Positions 1-4,636 of a DNA stretch of 4,636 nt are shown here, piece by piece. The notes beneath the pieces are model-generated. The model had not been told where the DNA came from and made no database searches. It was given only the letters and a program-made list of their open reading frames with translations. The position numbers and the translations under genes were made by a program. Each line of letters opens with the position of its first letter. Position 1 is the first letter of the stretch. The DNA lies in the IMG/VR virus record IMGVR_UViG_2690316099_000019; one strand, 5' to 3'. Source of the stretch: a virus. Its lineage: Duplodnaviria; Heunggongvirae; Uroviricota; Caudoviricetes.

Positions 1-207
1 ACACTAAATCAGTAAGTTGGCAGCATCACCGTTTTAACGTTACTAATAAATCGTGAAACAATCTCCTCATTTGTTAGTATTTTCGCCTGAGCACAGCAAG
101 AGGTTAATATTGCAACCGTCATTAAAAATGGCTTTATCACAAAACAAACTCCATTGTTAGCATGTTACGCGATAATTTTGCCTCATCTTTCACCACAAAA
201 AAAGAAC

Positions 208-2235
208 TCACCTTTTAAATGGAGAATACCCAACATCATGGGTGATTTTCATAAAGGGATCGCCTGTTTTCGGCAAATCGATAACGCGCATTCCAGGCGG
301 CGCGTTGTCAAACGTCACCTTAAGTTCGCTGCGGGTTGCCGGTGAAGATGCAAGGCTTAACAGCTGATTCCTTTCCAGTGATACATTCGGGGTGTAGCGT
401 TTATCGGGAGATAAATACCCATCACCACGTGGCATCTGCCATCCGGTCATGTCATAGACAAAATCATGGAACTGTTTGCCCCACTCGTCGAACTTATCAT
501 TCAGACCAAATCCACTGTTCAGTGCATCAGCCACAAAATTTTTAACAAGCCAGGGATGTGCTTTTTCAAACTCCTGCGCCATCATGCCCAGTTCAAGCAA
601 TCCACCAATCAGACTGATCTTTNNNNNNNNNNNNNNNNNNNNNNNNNNNNNNNNNNNNNNNNNNNNNNNNNNNNNNNNNNNNNNNNNNNNNNNNNNNNNN
701 NNNNNNNNNNNNNNNNNNNNNNNNNNNNNNNNNNNNNNNNNNNNNNNNNNNNNNNNNNNNNNNNNNNNNNNNNNNNNNNNNNNNNNNNNNNNNNNNNNNN
801 NNNNNNNNNNNNNNNNNNNNNNNNNNNNNNNNNNNNNNNNNNNNNNNNNNNNNNNNNNNNNNNNNNNNNNNNNNNNNNNNNNNNNNNNNNNTTTCACAAC
901 CGGACCGACCGTTTCCCAGTTATCAATTATGAGATATGCACCACCGACGAGAAGCGCAATTAATCCCTTTGCCGGCGTCATATTCATCACGCTACCCATG
1001 ATTTTTGTTATGCGTGTCAATGTGCCAATCGCCACGCCCATCGTCAGTAATGCCGCACCAGTTTTCGCGATGGTTTTTACGACCTCAGGATTTTCTCTGA
1101 CAAACGTGCGCACTTCTTCCAGAAAAGGCTTCATCTCTTTTATGCCTTCATTGAGTGAAGGCAGGAAGGTTTCCCCCAGCGTGGAAGAAATCGCATTGAT
1201 CTGGTTCTGCAGCAGCAACAACTGATTTTCTGTCGTCGCGGCACGGGCGGCATATTCTTTCTGCATTGAGCCGCCATACTGCTGCGCATCCGCCACACGA
1301 TTAAAGTTGGTTCGCAACAAATCCAGATTCGTGAGCAGCGGCGCAATGGCCCCCAGGGATTCCTTCCCGAACAGCGCTTTCAGCACAGCAGCCTGTTTTT
1401 CTTTCGGCACTTTTGCCAGAGAATCCAGTACGTGCAGCATGGCCCCGCGGGCGTCTTTCTGCATATCCGCCGCCAGTTTTTTCGGGCTAATGCGCAACGA
1501 GCGGAGCACTTTTTTCTGCGATTTGGTGGCAGAATCCCTCGCTGTCAGCGACAACATAAAATTCTTTATCCCCGTCGCAGCAATTTCTGACTCCACCCCC
1601 ATTCCGGCAATGGTTGCCCCCATTGCGGCAATCTCTCCGGAGGCCACACCCGCAACACTGCCTAAAGGGCCAATACGGGTCACAACATCAGAAATCTTTT
1701 TCGCACTTGCAGGACCGGTATTACCAAGATAGTTAATCTTATCCGCAAGCCCTGCCACCTCTCCCTGTGTCAGTTTAAAGGCAGTGCGCCACTGCGCCAT
1801 CATCTGACCGGATTCTTCTGCCGTGGTGTCAAAGGCCACGCCCATCTTCACGGCATCGTCAGTAAACTGCATCAGCTCGTCACGGGCGATACCAGCCTGA
1901 CCACCCGCCGCCACAATTTCGGCGATACCTTCCGCCGACATGGGCAGTTCTGTTGACAGGTCGCGCACCTGCTCCGTCATTGCCTTAAACGCTTCCGGCG
2001 TATCCAGACCATCCACCACTTTCCGGACATCCGCCATTTTTGATTCAAGGGCAATGGCAGATTTGACCGGGAGCGCCAGCGCCCCCAGTACTGCGGTTCC
2101 GGCACCCGCTGCGCCCAGTAACAGGCTGGCAAACTCCTTTTTAAAACCTTTCAGCTGGCGCTGCATTCCCTTCAGCGGTGCCGATACCTTATCCACGGCA
2201 GTGATGATCGCCTTCAGCTGAAAACTGTCAGCCAT
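208..2235 (-). CDS. Phage tail tape measure protein, TP901-type core (675 aa if the N-run 624..891 is exact length)
   Basis: ATG at 2235..2233 with strong SD; TGA at 210..208. The N-terminal half has the characteristic TP901-family tape measure core (GIAEIVAAGGQAGIARDELMQFTDDAVKMGVAFDTT...NYLGNTGPASAKKISDVV...GATIAGMGVESEIAATGIKNFMLSL), a long predicted helical Ala/Leu/Lys/Gln-rich region and hydrophobic Gly-rich segments before the gap. The reading frame is open on both sides of the 268-nt N-run in the same register. Confidence 0.85.
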   Translation of the reverse strand: MADSFQLKAIITAVDKVSAPLKGMQRQLKGFKKEFASLLLGAAGAGTAVLGALALPVKSAIALESKMADVRKVVDGLDTPEAFKAMTEQVRDLSTELPMSAEGIAEIVAAGGQAGIARDELMQFTDDAVKMGVAFDTTAEESGQMMAQWRTAFKLTQGEVAGLADKINYLGNTGPASAKKISDVVTRIGPLGSVAGVASGEIAAMGATIAGMGVESEIAATGIKNFMLSLTARDSATKSQKKVLRSLRISPKKLAADMQKDARGAMLHVLDSLAKVPKEKQAAVLKALFGKESLGAIAPLLTNLDLLRTNFNRVADAQQYGGSMQKEYAARAATTENQLLLLQNQINAISSTLGETFLPSLNEGIKEMKPFLEEVRTFVRENPEVVKTIAKTGAALLTMGVAIGTLTRITKIMGSVMNMTPAKGLIALLVGGAYLIIDNWETVGPVVKXXXXXXXXXXXXXXXXXXXXXXXXXXXXXXXXXXXXXXXXXXXXXXXXXXXXXXXXXXXXXXXXXXXXXXXXXXXXXXXXXXXXXXXXXXKISLIGGLLELGMMAQEFEKAHPWLVKNFVADALNSGFGLNDKFDEWGKQFHDFVYDMTGWQMPRGDGYLSPDKRYTPNVSLERNQLLSLASSPATRSELKVTFDNAPPGMRVIDLPKTGDPFMKITHDVGYSPFKR

Positions 2236-2392
2236 GCTTCATCTCCTCGTTAATGCGGACGGCCTCGGCTTCCAGTTCTGTAAACTGCGAAACAGCCCCC
2301 CGTCGCAGCTCCAGTGGATTCAGTTTCCAGAACCAGGCAACATTGTAGAGTCGTTTCCGGAGGTGCTTCCCGTCTCCGACTGGGTAAAAAAA
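2228..2392 (-). CDS. Frameshift extension of the tail assembly chaperone (GT-type fusion product; T-domain of 52 codons reached only by -1 slippage)
   Basis: After slippage the -1 frame reads (FF)YPVGDGKHLRKRLYNVAWFWKLNPLELRRGAVSQFTELEAEAVRINEEMKHG then TGA at 2230..2228. Codon usage is enterobacterial-like (CTG x4, GAA/GAG, GCC). This frame has a TAA at 2416..2414 just upstream and no ATG/GTG/TTG before the heptamer. Its stop overlaps the tape measure start (ATGGCTGA). Confidence 0.5.
   Translation of the reverse strand, partial: FFYPVGDGKHLRKRLYNVAWFWKLNPLELRRGAVSQFTELEAEAVRINEEMKHG
2243..2248 (-). promoter_or_regulatory. Shine-Dalgarno (GAGGAG) for the tape measure gene
   Basis: Minus-strand GAGGAG lies 7 nt upstream of the ATG at 2235..2233. 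Confidence 0.6.
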
Positions 2393-2440
2393 CGCAGGAT
2401 CTGCATGCTGGTCTTAAAAATATCCAGTTTTGCCATCTGC
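2320..2440 (-). CDS. Tail assembly chaperone (lambda gpG / P2 gpE analogue), C-terminal 39 codons visible; 5' end inside the N-run
   Basis: Minus-strand frame with codons starting at 2439, 2436 and so on reads QMAKLDIFKTSMQILRFFTQSETGSTSGNDSTMLPGSGN then TGA at 2322..2320. It sits between tube and tape measure and contains the in-frame slippery heptamer. Confidence 0.5.
2358..2378 (-). promoter_or_regulatory. Candidate frameshift-stimulating hairpin (stem CGGAG / CTCCG, 11-nt loop), 6 nt 3' of the slippery site
   Basis: Minus-strand CGGAG (2378..2374) can pair with CTCCG (2362..2358), with a possible extra U-G pair at 2379/2357. The spacer to the heptamer is ACCCAG (6 nt), within the usual 5-9 nt range. 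Short stem, so tentative. Confidence 0.25.
2386..2392 (-). other. -1 programmed ribosomal frameshift slippery heptamer T_TTT_TTT (A7 on the + strand)
   Basis: Seven consecutive T on the minus strand, phased as cgT TTT TTT acc in the chaperone frame (X_XXY_YYZ register). The -1 frame downstream is open for 52 codons with good codon usage and has no start codon of its own. Confidence 0.55.
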
Positions 2441-2725
2441 NNNNNNNNNNNNNNNNNNNNNNNNNNNNNNNNNNNNNNNNNNNNNNNNNNNNNNNNNNNN
2501 NNNNNNNNNNNNNNNNNNNNNNNNNNNNNNNNNNNNNNNNNNNNNNNNNNNNNNNNNNNNNNNNNNNNNNNNNNNNNNNNNNNNNNNNNNNNNNNNNNNN
2601 NNNNNNNNNNNNNNNNNNNNNNNNNNNNNNNNNNNNNNNNNNNNNNNNNNNNNNNNNNNNNNNNNNNNNNNNNNNNNNNNNNNNNNNNNNNNNNNNNNNN
2701 NNNNNNNNNNNNNNNNNNNNNNNNN

Positions 2726-3089
2726 CTTCGCCGTGGAATTCAAGATCTGCCGTGCCTTCTTCGGCATTATGATTAGCCTCTCCGTGCAGCCATGCCGCCG
2801 AAAGCACATACACCATGCCGTTTGCCAGCTCAGCGGTAATCGTCATCTGGTCTGAGGTGGTAATTTTGTCGACCGGAAAGTTTTTGGGNNNNNNNNNNNN
2901 NNNNNNNNNGGGCACTTTAAACGTGCCCTTAACGTAAGGTGACCGCCAGGTCTCCTTGTAATCCACATCCCCTGCCATGCCGACGATGTCATCCCGGACA
3001 TTGGTGTTCATCGGCACTTCAATGCCACCTGTCAGCGATAACTGCTGACCATCCACTTTAAAAAAACAGGTTCCGGCGATCTTTGCCAT
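2726..3089 (-). CDS. Tail tube protein, N-terminal about 121 codons visible (7 codons masked at 2889..2909); C-terminus and stop lie inside the N-run 2441..2725
   Basis: ATG at 3089..3087 overlaps the sheath TAA by 1 nt (TAATG) and has a GAGGAG SD. Position immediately after the sheath gene and the expected tube size (about 120-170 aa) support the call. The ORF-track 279-aa product (2250..3089) is a read-through artefact of the N-run; the protein-like text stops at the gap. Confidence 0.7.
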
Positions 3090-4585
3090 TATGCTGACTC
3101 CTCTGAATACTGAAGACGGAACTGGTTAACCACCGCAAAGACACGTAACTGATTAACATAATCCGGCGGGAACAGCGTATTCAGTCGGTTCGGGTTATCT
3201 GCATCACGCTCAACTATCAGATACTGTTTAAACAGATCGTAATTTTCCACAATACCGGCACGCTCCATCTGACGATATGTCGCCAGAAGTTCCCCTTTGA
3301 TAACGGCAGGAGTGACAATCGCCTGCCCCGGACCAAAACGGGTACCATCATTTGCCAGCTTGTGACGTCCGTACTTGCTTGTGATGACCGATTTCAGTTT
3401 GCGAAGAACATATGCACTGGTATGCAGAGTTTCACTGTCCAGATAGCTGTTGTCTGCCACGCCATACGCATTCTTTTTGTAGGTGGTTACGGAACGCTGG
3501 ATCTGCAACGTGCCGCCTTCCACATAAGCCGTCGCCACGCCGTGAGATAAAAGGGTCTGCTGCTCTGTCATGATGAATCGCTTACCTTTCGGTGCCGGAA
3601 GCATCCCCACCAGCTCCCCCGTCTGTGTCGGACGGGCAGGATCATTCCGGATAAATACCGCTTCACGGGCAAGGCGACTGGCAACCAGTTCATCGACAGG
3701 CGACTGGGTTTCTTTTTCGTAACCGGCAAGCGTGATATGTTGCTGATTATGCATATCTCCGGCACCAACCAGCTCTGACAGCGTTCCCAGTTTTGCGGTA
3801 TAGACATGCCCGTATAACTGGCGCGCATAACTCCAGCGACCGCTGCTGTCATTCATTTCGGTCATCATCATATTGATGGAGGCGGCATCGTTGAACGGCA
3901 GACCGATAAAGTCGAATGCCTCATCGCCCATAGCAGCAACAGCGGCGGTAAGATCAGGCGCTCCGCTACCGGCAGCACCGACTTCCGTCACCACCCGAAG
4001 CCCTGCTGGCAGAATCTCACCACCACCAGAACCATAATAATTCAGACAGACCGGTAACTCATTACCATACAGCCCCTTATGACGGGCAGTCAGCGTCACC
4101 ACACCTGCATCAGATGACGCCGTAAACGGCAGGGTGATAACCCCGTTTACCGCTTCCTTAATCGCGGTGGCAACCGCAGTGGCATCATCGCCATTCACCA
4201 CAGGCACCTGTACACGGGAGCGCCCGACATACAGACTCAGGGTGCCGCTTTCCTCTGCTTCTCCGGCAACCGTCACCCTGACCGTCGCCGCCGCCCCTCT
4301 GGCTTCCGGTACTGCAATAACATACAGTTCACCGAAAGGATCTGTCTGACGGTAGACTTCCACCATACGCGCCAGCTGGCTCCCCGCCCCACAAATCTGG
4401 CGGGCATAATCTGCCGATGGCATCAGCACCAGGCTGTTAACCTCAATGGCTGCATCGTTGCTGGCATGCCCGATCAGTAATGCAGGCGCGCTGGTCACCG
4501 CTGTATTTGCCGCAGAATTGTTCATCTCGGCGTAGAACAACGGCACCAGCGTATTCGACGGAACAGTATTAAAACTTATCGTCAT
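3089..4585 (-). CDS. Phage contractile tail sheath protein (498 aa)
   Basis: Uninterrupted 498-codon ORF, ATG at 4585..4583, TAA at 3091..3089. Size and sequence character match myovirus sheath proteins (Mu gpL-like size class, by recall). Its stop overlaps the start of the next gene (TAATG), as is typical for sheath followed by tube. Weak SD-like AAGG about 10 nt upstream. Confidence 0.85.
   Translation of the reverse strand: MTISFNTVPSNTLVPLFYAEMNNSAANTAVTSAPALLIGHASNDAAIEVNSLVLMPSADYARQICGAGSQLARMVEVYRQTDPFGELYVIAVPEARGAAATVRVTVAGEAEESGTLSLYVGRSRVQVPVVNGDDATAVATAIKEAVNGVITLPFTASSDAGVVTLTARHKGLYGNELPVCLNYYGSGGGEILPAGLRVVTEVGAAGSGAPDLTAAVAAMGDEAFDFIGLPFNDAASINMMMTEMNDSSGRWSYARQLYGHVYTAKLGTLSELVGAGDMHNQQHITLAGYEKETQSPVDELVASRLAREAVFIRNDPARPTQTGELVGMLPAPKGKRFIMTEQQTLLSHGVATAYVEGGTLQIQRSVTTYKKNAYGVADNSYLDSETLHTSAYVLRKLKSVITSKYGRHKLANDGTRFGPGQAIVTPAVIKGELLATYRQMERAGIVENYDLFKQYLIVERDADNPNRLNTLFPPDYVNQLRVFAVVNQFRLQYSEESA
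3098..3103 (-). promoter_or_regulatory. Shine-Dalgarno (GAGGAG) for the tail tube gene
   Basis: Minus-strand GAGGAG lies 8 nt upstream of the ATG at 3089..3087, inside the 3' end of the sheath gene. Confidence 0.6.
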
Positions 4586-4597
4586 GATTTTTTAGCC

Positions 4598-4636
4598 TTA
4601 TCCTTGAGGTGTACTGGCAATAGCGGACACTACCAT
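4598..4636 (-). CDS. 3' end (last 12 codons plus TAA stop) of an upstream gene, probably a head-completion or tail-joining gene of the same late operon; truncated by the window edge
   Basis: Minus-strand frame is open from the window edge to a TAA at 4600..4598, only 12 nt upstream of the sheath ATG. Too short to assign a function from sequence. Confidence 0.3.
   Translation of the reverse strand: MVVSAIASTPQG

Follow-up and report, generated by a model that had tools for sequence, protein, structure and literature searches.

The locus analysed here raises the question of whether a single phage tail gene gives rise to two proteins, a short one read entirely in one frame and a long one reached by a -1 frameshift near the end of that frame. 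The window, by which we mean the whole stretch of 4,636 nucleotides that was analysed, carries a block of four genes, for sheath, tube, chaperone and tape measure, from a phiP27-like prophage whose contractile tail is of Mu type. A preliminary description of its letters had proposed a -1 shift on a run of seven T's in a tail assembly chaperone gene, placed between the genes for tube and tape measure. As seen in Table 1, the genes follow one another on the minus strand from sheath through tube and chaperone to tape measure, and the PF10618 and PF10145 matches of the two neighbours, with the sheath gene upstream, bore out that placement. In unmasked records, the stop codon of the tube gene overlaps the chaperone start as TAATG. 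The tape-measure gene begins with an ATG at 2235..2233 (minus strand), contains an N-run (623..891), and has a putative Shine-Dalgarno sequence, GAGGAG, 7 nt before its ATG and within the chaperone extension (residues N-E-E). The phiP27-like prophages are a widespread enterobacterial family. The window's sheath protein alone occurs in 4015 blocks of the collection.

Table 1. Features of the window, with positions counted from its first letter
Feature	Position	Strand	Remarks
Tail sheath gene, 498 aa	3089..4585	minus	PF04984, PF17481, PF17482
Tail tube gene, visible part	2726..3089	minus	PF10618; 118 aa in unmasked records
Chaperone 0 frame, visible part	2320..2440	minus	stop TGA 2322..2320; full product 111 aa in L007
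TAA closing the -1 frame upstream	2414..2416	minus	30 nt (10 codons) before the TAC codon
Slippery heptamer T_TTT_TTT, in register	2386..2392	minus	CG[T TTT TTT]ACC; A7 on the plus strand
Candidate 6-bp hairpin UCGGAG / CUCCGG, 11-nt loop	2357..2379	minus	6 nt 3' of the heptamer
-1-frame extension, 52 sense codons (2386..2231)	2228..2386	minus	TGA 2230..2228; protein YPVGDGKHLRKRLYNVAWFWKLNPLELRRGAVSQFTELEAEAVRINEEMKHG
GAGGAG, putative Shine-Dalgarno of the tape-measure gene	2243..2248	minus	read from the sequence
Tape-measure protein gene	208..2235	minus	PF10145 PhageMin_Tail; 649 aa in unmasked records

The register of the heptamer was read with a proxy, record L007 (CP044151.1), which is the same as the window across all four non-N segments. 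The N-runs of the window measure 285, 21 and 269 nt, against 231, -3 and 191 nt in the actual L007 sequence, and the excesses of 54, 24 and 78 nt are all multiples of 3. Because of these excess lengths, the chaperone start, which falls within the N-run at 2441..2725, has no unique window coordinate. The unmasking of the chaperone gene that the preliminary description had called for, done here through L007, gave a complete ORF of 111 aa with an ATG start and an intact 0 frame, in which no stop precedes the heptamer.

A search against tail assembly chaperone profiles had likewise been suggested. The 0-frame product matched PF10109 (Phage_TAC_7; chaperones E, 41 and 14) over residues 8 to 77 with 29.8 bits (E 6e-7), above the gathering threshold of 25 bits. 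It also matched PHROG 166 'tail protein' (E 5e-28), and the RefSeq name for the protein is 'phage tail assembly protein'. A weaker, fold-level check was made on an AlphaFold model, in which confidence was limited to residues 1 to 88; the best BFVD match of the predicted N-terminal domain fold was a phage tape-measure chaperone (E 4.8e-4, TM-score 0.48). Against the PDB, a profile search of the sequences and a Foldseek search gave no match below E = 1, and NCBIfam holds no model for the short or the fused product. By its profile match, the 0-frame product is assigned to the PF10109 tail assembly chaperones. The part added by the -1 frame, about 50 residues long, lies outside any Pfam family, and two PHROG families (63 to 68 aa) match it alone.

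The proposed slip site consists of the last base of a CGT codon and two TTT phenylalanine codons, which in L007 are the third base of codon 88 and codons 89 and 90. From there the -1 frame reads TAC CCA GTC ... CAT GGC TGA, and 0-frame codons 1 to 90 joined to this extension give a 142-aa fusion, whose end overlaps the tape-measure ATG by 8 nt: ATGGCTGA. The in-register heptamer at 2392..2386, the 52 open codons down to the TGA at 2230..2228 and the 0-frame stop at 2322..2320 had all been described before and were found again as described. The -1 frame had also been held not to be translatable on its own. This proved correct, with the TAA at 2416..2414 closing the frame and no ATG, GTG or TTG between that TAA and the heptamer; since the TAA lies in the visible part, a separate start and Shine-Dalgarno sequence in the masked part would not serve this frame. 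The third frame, with a stop at 2252..2250 (minus strand), holds many stops upstream and has no coding periodicity, which argues against it as the real coding frame.

How much weight the window can bear by itself was estimated from chance expectations. About 0.003 in-register T7 runs would be expected per 111 codons, and a stretch of 52 open codons has a probability of about 0.08; across the four tail genes, 5.4% of codon positions are followed by at least 52 open codons in the -1 frame. These single-sequence estimates are modest, and the decisive evidence is conservation in relatives. Other in-register heptamers in the block were rejected as functional sites. Within the chaperone gene, A_AAA_AAA and T_TTA_AAA (codons 9 to 11) and G_GGT_TTT (codon 38) have -1 frames that close in 5 to 6 codons, and they are present only in closer relatives, not family-wide. 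In the tube gene, a second in-register T_TTT_TTT, used as an internal control, has a -1 frame that closes immediately and is not conserved.

Conservation was followed across 102 related loci (54 distinct sequences), whose chaperone identity goes down to 52%. In these relatives, which share ancestry so that the counts are not independent events, T7 stands in register at the same codon and is invariant in 54 of 54 distinct sequences (all 102 loci), and alignment columns 0 to 6 are T throughout (n = 37 unique sequences). The phenylalanine codons at the slip site are TTT in 102/102 loci, against 59 TTT and 95 TTC elsewhere in the gene (38% TTT), and the codon before the site is always NNT, though its residue varies (R, N, G or S). 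Among the 54 distinct relatives, 51 keep the -1 frame open for 51 to 53 codons; of the other three, two carry a 1-nt frame-fusing insertion and one has a missed stop. None of the 54 has an ATG, GTG or TTG ahead of the heptamer in that frame, despite open stretches of up to 71 codons, and internal starts in the extension occur only at codons 27 to 49. Moreover, the -1 stop overlaps the tape-measure start by 8 to 11 nt in 52 of the 54, the exceptions being L036 and L053, in which the script detected no tape-measure start. In phage records, tblastn matched the fusion as two pieces; at this position YeP2, AH07, EPP-1, SfV and Pseudomonas DVM-2008 carry either T_TTT_TTC or T_TTT_TTT, and a homologous extension comes after it. 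As a separate observation, a 1-nt insertion joins the two frames in many Shigella copies.

The stretch past the 0-frame stop, annotated as intergenic or non-coding, was then compared by codon position. Over the 27 codons that follow this stop, varying sites number 9, 8 and 26 at the first, second and third positions of the -1-frame codons, and by this third-position variability the 'gap' that precedes the tape-measure gene evolves like -1-frame coding sequence. Pairwise identity averages 0.83 in the extension and 0.82 in the N-terminal domain, against 0.69 in the 0-frame tail. As judged from these substitution patterns, the -1-frame extension is under purifying selection.

Taken with the conserved heptamer and the two-frame layout, this makes it very likely that the chaperone gene contains a real programmed -1 frameshift and yields a short and a long form from one gene. 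The ribosomal shift itself, its frequency and the roles of both products we infer. Most ribosomes would pass straight through the gene and make the 111-aa protein, and a minority would slip back by one base at CGU UUU UUU, with the tRNA-Phe of the P site and that of the A site each pairing anew with a UUU codon of the -1 frame. The slipped ribosomes would continue with UAC CCA and read 52 codons to a 142-aa protein, ending at a stop that would overlap the ATG of the tape-measure gene. If the products act as lambda G/GT and P2 E/E+E' do, the N-terminal domain common to both may bind the tape-measure protein and the part present only in the long one may recruit the tube protein, and tail assembly may need a fixed ratio of short to long form. 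The chaperone frameshift is described as conserved in tailed phages in the accounts of PMC5009743 and PMC2628397, the latter citing Xu et al. 2004.

Next, the surroundings of the slip site were searched for an RNA element that could stimulate the shift. Neither an upstream Shine-Dalgarno-like stimulator nor a conserved downstream hairpin was found in the window fold and the alignment of relatives. The candidate hairpin of Table 1 pairs in 77% of the cells of that alignment, shows no compensatory change and does no better than shuffled sequences; the single-sequence fold likewise shows no gain in stability over shuffled versions (z = -0.27). For an alignment of 13 diverse relatives, RNAalifold returned just a 4-bp helix (-2.4 kcal/mol), and Rfam had no match. 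In E. coli, U_UUU_UUU is prone to frameshifting and shifts at 0.33% without a stimulator and at 10.2% with the IS3 pseudoknot (PMC4066793 Table S3). Judged from these reporter data, the rate with an unstimulated U_UUU_UUU could be well under 1%.

The preliminary description had likened this architecture to lambda G/GT and P2 E/E+E', and the likeness is borne out by the PF10109 domain shared with P2 gpE and by the conserved heptamer with its two-frame layout. The closest documented case is P2 gpE/gpE+E' (NC_001895; Christie et al. 2002, as cited in PMC5009743). Like the window protein, P2 gpE matches PF10109 with its N-terminal domain, and its gene, likewise in a phage with a contractile tail, has the tube gene on one side and the tape-measure gene on the other. 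The P2 slip site had been said to be a T-run as well, and RefSeq indeed annotates a -1 shift there, on T_TTT_TTG. In both phages the run lies right where the domain ends (GGT TTT TTG in P2, CGT TTT TTT in the window), the long product has 142 aa, and its stop overlaps the tape-measure start (gene T in P2) by 8 nt. The two differ in the last base of the heptamer (G in P2, T in the window), in the short product (91 aa against 111 aa) and in the 0-frame tail after the slip (6 residues against 21), and the pairwise similarity of the chaperones is not significant (BLASTP E = 18). The extension gave no match to PF06528, the family of P2 E', at E <= 1 for the window or at E <= 10 for 15 family members, whereas P2 E+E' itself scores 76 bits. 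An hhalign comparison of the extension with P2 E' was colinear but weak (E 0.01, probability 4%). Furthermore, the neighbouring tail genes are of Mu type (498-aa sheath, DUF2635, DNA circularization protein) and not of P2 type.

[quoted passage not shown] In the summary given by PMC5009743 (citing Levin et al. 1993 and Xu et al. 2004, 2013, 2014), virions contain neither lambda form, and the two are required in a fixed ratio. The lambda slip site is G_GGA_AAG (PMC4066793 Table S4), implying tRNA-Lys where the window implies tRNA-Phe, and the lambda tail is non-contractile, unlike that of the window. The order of the module is matched by Mu, which has DUF2635, sheath L, tube M, chaperone, tape measure and DNA circularization protein in the same succession. 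Nevertheless, Mu gp41 (Mup41) scores weakly on PF10109 (24.7 bits, just under the cut-off of 25), and the Mu shift is reported as -2 (PMC5009743, PMC2628397), whereas the window has the geometry of a -1 shift on a classical heptamer. An assignment of the window protein to Gp41_Mu (PF23746) was rejected: its sole reported Pfam match is PF10109, and Mu gp41 reaches 119 bits on PF23746.

A further comparison was made with orf13 of SfV and the homologous genes of SfI, SfII, AH07 and EPP-1. SfV orf13 matches PF10109 at 56.7 bits and has GGT TTT TTC at the equivalent codon; its -1 extension aligns with that of the window, with W20, P24, A42, R44 and I45 invariant, and its -1 stop overlaps the tape-measure start in the same way. 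Identity to the window is about 40% in the N-terminal domain and 27% in the extension, and the SfV 0-frame tail has 3 residues. The frameshift is annotated in none of the SfV-type records opened. In P2, the SfV-like genes and the phiP27/ST64B/SfIV group alike, the T-run always coincides with the G/R-F-F/L motif that ends the domain, reading T_TTT_TTG, T_TTT_TTC and T_TTT_TTT, respectively, and in the last group the extension has the motif [FY]W[KR]xNP...RI. These sites may descend from a single ancestral T-run recoding site carried along with PF10109, working with no RNA stimulator, with the extension a diverged homologue of P2 E'; we put this forward tentatively and regard it as somewhat doubtful. 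Should it be true, these phages would offer a clean natural series in which to study how the chaperone ratio depends on the last base of the heptamer and on 0-frame tail length.

The window thus holds an unannotated but ordinary example of the well-known chaperone frameshift of tailed phages. The fusion is annotated in 0 of the 11 family records opened, and all of them leave a gap of at least 84 nt before the tape-measure gene. These are a RefSeq E. coli prophage, an automatically called NCBI chromosome of Shigella/E. coli type, two phiP27 records and seven phages (vB_EcoM-720R4, F1055, YeP2, AH07, EPP-1, SfV and DVM-2008). The chaperone cluster is not among the prophage candidates of Sharma et al. 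2014. The main value of the site is one of annotation, as a joined CDS would correct the proteome of the phiP27-like prophage family; biologically, it adds another case of a textbook mechanism, with an all-U heptamer and no evident stimulator, and opens no new question.

Two other routes to the same sequence pattern were weighed. If RNA polymerase added one U on the T7 run, the resulting U8 mRNA would encode the same 142 aa, and the protein, with its ...RFFYPV... junction, would be identical by either route. Homopolymeric A/T runs do slip in bacteria, UUUUUUU is avoided in all three phases of E. coli genes, for which the authors of PMC4066793 give transcriptional slippage as one possible reason, and the search described above found no RNA stimulator of ribosomal shifting. 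However, documented productive slippage in bacteria involves runs of about 9 or more (PMC5009743); the run here is 7, and P2 and the distant members have just T6 followed by C or G, so the site was rejected as one of that productive type. The X_XXY_YYZ register, always at the same codon, would matter to a ribosome and not to a polymerase, and the P2 site is annotated in RefSeq as a translational frameshift. Polymerase slippage as the main source of the long form is thus improbable. It is less credible still that no recoding takes place, with the heptamer a coincidence and the -1 ORF read from a non-canonical start or by re-initiation, or left as an untranslated relic. The eleven family records do annotate the short gene only, with the gap after it, and the PHROG families that cover the extension alone suggest that some annotators call a separate small ORF. 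Against this reading, the chaperone T7 is invariant although synonymous changes are possible, while the T7 of the tube gene, which is not conserved, illustrates how a coincidental run behaves; the -1 frame offers no usual start codon before the heptamer in the 54 distinct sequences, and the extension is under purifying selection.

With the programmed ribosomal frameshift as the preferred reading, the state of this particular copy can be considered separately. It lies in a prophage remnant with insertion sequences on both sides. In the two records identical to it (L007 and L010), an IS3-family element and an IS1 flank the sheath-to-tape-measure block, and no genes for head, portal or baseplate are present. 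It is fairly probable that the tail genes of this defective prophage are neither expressed nor needed, leaving the signal as a silent fossil, and the many Shigella copies with frame-fusing insertions point in the same direction. Against this, the slip site and all four ORFs remain intact, with sequences identical to their counterparts in complete prophages; in any case, silence would concern the host copy and would not contradict the mechanism. Positions 1..30 of the window resemble the IS1 terminal repeat.

All long ORFs of the window lie on the minus strand, and gene calls on contigs encoding an identical sheath protein assigned the tail genes to the Pfam families in the table. RefSeq and phage records of almost identical sequence show the same gene order and names (for example E. 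coli FDAARGOS_944, 99.8%; phage phiP27, 97.3%), and the tail module is of the Mu type, because phage Mu shares this gene order. The four non-N segments of the window are all identical in L007 (NCBI CP044151.1), which was used as an unmasked proxy for the masked parts. In all three N-runs, the excess over L007 is a multiple of 3, and the frames are thus preserved across the masks; either masking changes the length, or the source has in-frame insertions under the masks. Since the N-runs are longer than the L007 sequence, no single coordinate in the window can be assigned to the chaperone start. Unmasking of the chaperone ORF through this proxy, as the preliminary description had proposed, gave a 0 frame of 111 codons with an ATG start that overlaps the tube stop (TAATG).

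Features of the window and their counterparts in the proxy locus L007
Feature	Window	Strand	L007	Remarks
Tail sheath gene	4585..3089	minus		498 aa; PF04984, PF17481, PF17482
Tail tube gene	starts at 3089	minus		PF10618
Chaperone gene, partly masked	stop 2322..2320	minus	stop corresponds to that of the window	PF10109 (Phage_TAC_7)
Tape-measure gene	2235..208	minus		PF10145
N-run	2889..2909 (21 nt)		-3 nt	CCC on both sides of the run, once in L007
N-run	2441..2725 (285 nt)		231 nt	
N-run	623..891 (269 nt)		191 nt	
Overlapping heptamers, chaperone codons 9-11	inside N-run 2441..2725		5879..5888	
Insertion-sequence boundaries	1..30 and 4586..4636		2782..3938 and 8455..9152	

The proposed profile search supported a chaperone identity for the 0-frame protein, which matches PF10109 with 29.8 bits against a gathering cut-off of 25, as well as PHROG 166 "tail protein" (E 5e-28); NCBIfam has no model for it. 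P2 gpE+E' and SfV orf13 also match PF10109, with the slip site at the end of the domain in each of them. A natural fused relative was modelled with AlphaFold, with only five aligned sequences for the extension; the model was confident for residues 1-88 (pLDDT 85-94) and poor for the extension. No significant match to this model was found in the PDB; its top BFVD match was a "tape measure chaperone" of Burkholderia phage Mica (E 4.8e-4), followed by several tail assembly chaperones.

As claimed, an in-register T_TTT_TTT is present at 2392..2386, where the minus strand reads ...ATC CTG CGT TTT TTT ACC CAG... and the heptamer is formed by the third base of codon 88 with codons 89 and 90. The -1 frame reads from the last T and is indeed open for 52 codons (TAC CCA GTC GGA ... 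ATG AAG CAT GGC TGA), with its stop at 2230..2228; the tape-measure ATG lies at 2235..2233 (ATGGCTGA), with GAGGAG upstream at 2248..2243. The fused product has 142 aa. The upstream closure of the -1 frame was likewise borne out, with a TAA at 2416..2414 and no ATG, GTG or TTG before the heptamer, and re-reading of the minus strand found all coordinates of the preliminary description to be correct. In a single sequence, these features are only moderately unlikely by chance: an in-register T7 is expected ~0.003 times per 111 codons, the probability of 52 open codons is ~0.08, and a -1 frame as long occurs at 5.4% of codon positions in the four tail genes.

The comparative set comprised 102 related loci, corresponding to 54 distinct sequences of the region with chaperone identity down to 52%, from E. 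coli/Shigella, Mixta, Pantoea, Buttiauxella, Leclercia, Lonsdalea, one Enterobacteriaceae isolate and IMG/VR viral contigs. In 54/54 distinct relatives, T_TTT_TTT occupies the corresponding codon position in register, and 51 of them have a -1 frame of 51-53 open codons, the exceptions being two loci with a 1-nt frame-fusing insertion (L006 and L050) and one in which the -1 stop was missed (L053). No start codon was found upstream in the -1 frame in the 54 relatives, including those in which the open stretch reaches up to 71 codons. The overlap between the -1 stop and the tape-measure start measures 8-11 nt in 52/54; in the two others (L036 and L053), the script detected no tape-measure start. 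The T7 tract and the AC after it are invariant across 37 unique ungapped sequences. At the slip site, 102/102 Phe codons are TTT, versus 59 TTT and 95 TTC elsewhere in the chaperone gene, and the codon before them ends in T throughout while encoding R, N, G or S. In the 27 codons from the 0-frame stop to the tape-measure overlap, a region left unannotated in public records, variable sites at -1-frame positions 1, 2 and 3 number 9, 8 and 26; variability is similar in the upstream part read only in the 0 frame (13, 4 and 26 of 28 by codon position). Within the 21-codon two-frame overlap, -1-frame position 2 varies least. Averaged over sequence pairs, amino-acid identity reaches 0.82 in the N-domain and 0.83 in the extension, against 0.69 in the 0-frame tail.

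With the fused protein as query, tblastn matched 20 phage records, each time as two pieces lying in different frames; these records include phiP27, SfIV, ST64B, 118970_sal3, F1055, YeP1-3, AH07, EPP-1 and Paraburkholderia IPK. The slip site of YeP2 is T_TTT_TTT, and AH07, EPP-1, SfV and Pseudomonas DVM-2008 have GGT/AGT TTT TTC at this position; in all five, the -1 extension aligns with that of the window, ends at the tape-measure start and shares the invariant residues W20, P24, A42, R44 and I45. In P2, the slip site is GGT TTT TTG rather than CGT TTT TTT, and E and E+E' have 91 and 142 aa, compared with 111 and 142 aa for the short and fused forms of the window; E+E', entered in RefSeq as a joined CDS with "-1 frameshift", overlaps gene T by 8 nt. 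The window's extension had no match to PF06528, the P2 E' family, and its hhalign match to P2 E' was colinear and weak. Since the extension alone matches phrog_32181 and phrog_11318 (63-68 aa, function not assigned; E 8e-5 and 4e-3), some phage genomes appear to have the -1 ORF called as a small gene of its own. The fused product is annotated in 0/11 records of the phage group examined. Tail-chaperone frameshifting is already textbook knowledge (Xu et al. 2004; Christie et al. 2002; as cited in PMC2628397 and PMC5009743), and we rate the window locus as an additional case of this established phenomenon.

In the simplest reading, two tRNA-Phe would slip in tandem on U_UUU_UUU. This heptamer, strongly under-represented in E. 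coli genes, gave 0.33% frameshifting in that host when no stimulator was present, which ranks among the highest such values, 0.45% with IS911 elements and 10.2% with the IS3 pseudoknot; the values for U_UUU_UUC are 0.12%, 0.89% and 7.6% (Sharma et al., PMC4066793). The cluster is absent from the prophage candidates of that study. At the locus and in its relatives no conserved RNA stimulator was found, and no SD-like element is visible upstream of the heptamer. The main rival is transcriptional slippage on the T-run, which would yield exactly the same fused protein. However, T7 is short for such a process, as productive bacterial cases use about 9, and what the family keeps is the register and not the run length (SfV-like phages and P2 have T6), which favors a ribosomal slip. 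For ribosomal frameshifting in lambda, the G:GT molar ratio is 30:1, and efficiency is 2- to 3-fold higher in P2-like phages (review PMC5009743). In lambda, the domain common to both forms contacts the tape-measure protein, and the tail-shaft subunit is bound by the extension (PMC5009743); by analogy, we infer that the short and long products here would act in the same way.

Other heptamers were also seen. A second in-register T_TTT_TTT spans tube codons 8-10 (window 3060..3066, minus; ACC TGT TTT TTT AAA). It was rejected as a slip site, as the next -1 codon is TAA, so that a slip would end after 10 residues, and most relatives have TAT TTC instead. This T7 is probably coincidental and provides an internal example of such a heptamer. 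In chaperone codons 9-11, T_TTA_AAA and A_AAA_AAA overlap in register (GTT TTA AAA AAA CCG); the -1 frame closes there after 5-6 codons, and these heptamers are confined to relatives of about 80% identity or more and are not seen family-wide.

Frame variants were observed as well. In many Shigella flexneri copies, one nucleotide is inserted about 30 nt 3' of the slip site (GGAAAC to GGAAAAC), so that both frames are joined in a single constitutive ORF of 142 aa and the short form is lost. This insertion occurs in L006 and L050 and in the database proteins P0001, P0003 and P0005, P0003 alone being found on 661 contigs, and could reflect real prophage decay or a recurrent homopolymer sequencing error. 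In P0006 and P0009, from SfIV-like relatives, the frames are joined exactly at the slip site (...MRF-YRLGDG...) with one Phe and not two, corresponding to a T5 tract rather than T7; this junction may result from tract-length variation or an assembly error.

The window copy is probably a prophage remnant. In L007 and the likewise identical record L010, an IS3-family element and IS1 lie on either side of the four genes, and head and baseplate genes are missing. Immediately upstream of the sheath gene, the position held by a DUF2635 gene in intact relatives is taken by the IS3-family transposase. At the opposite end, window 1..30 resembles the IS1 terminal inverted repeat, and IS1 InsA lies beyond it in L007. 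The 160-aa gene that normally follows the tape-measure gene is cut short here (window 140..9), and the frameshift signal is intact in this copy.
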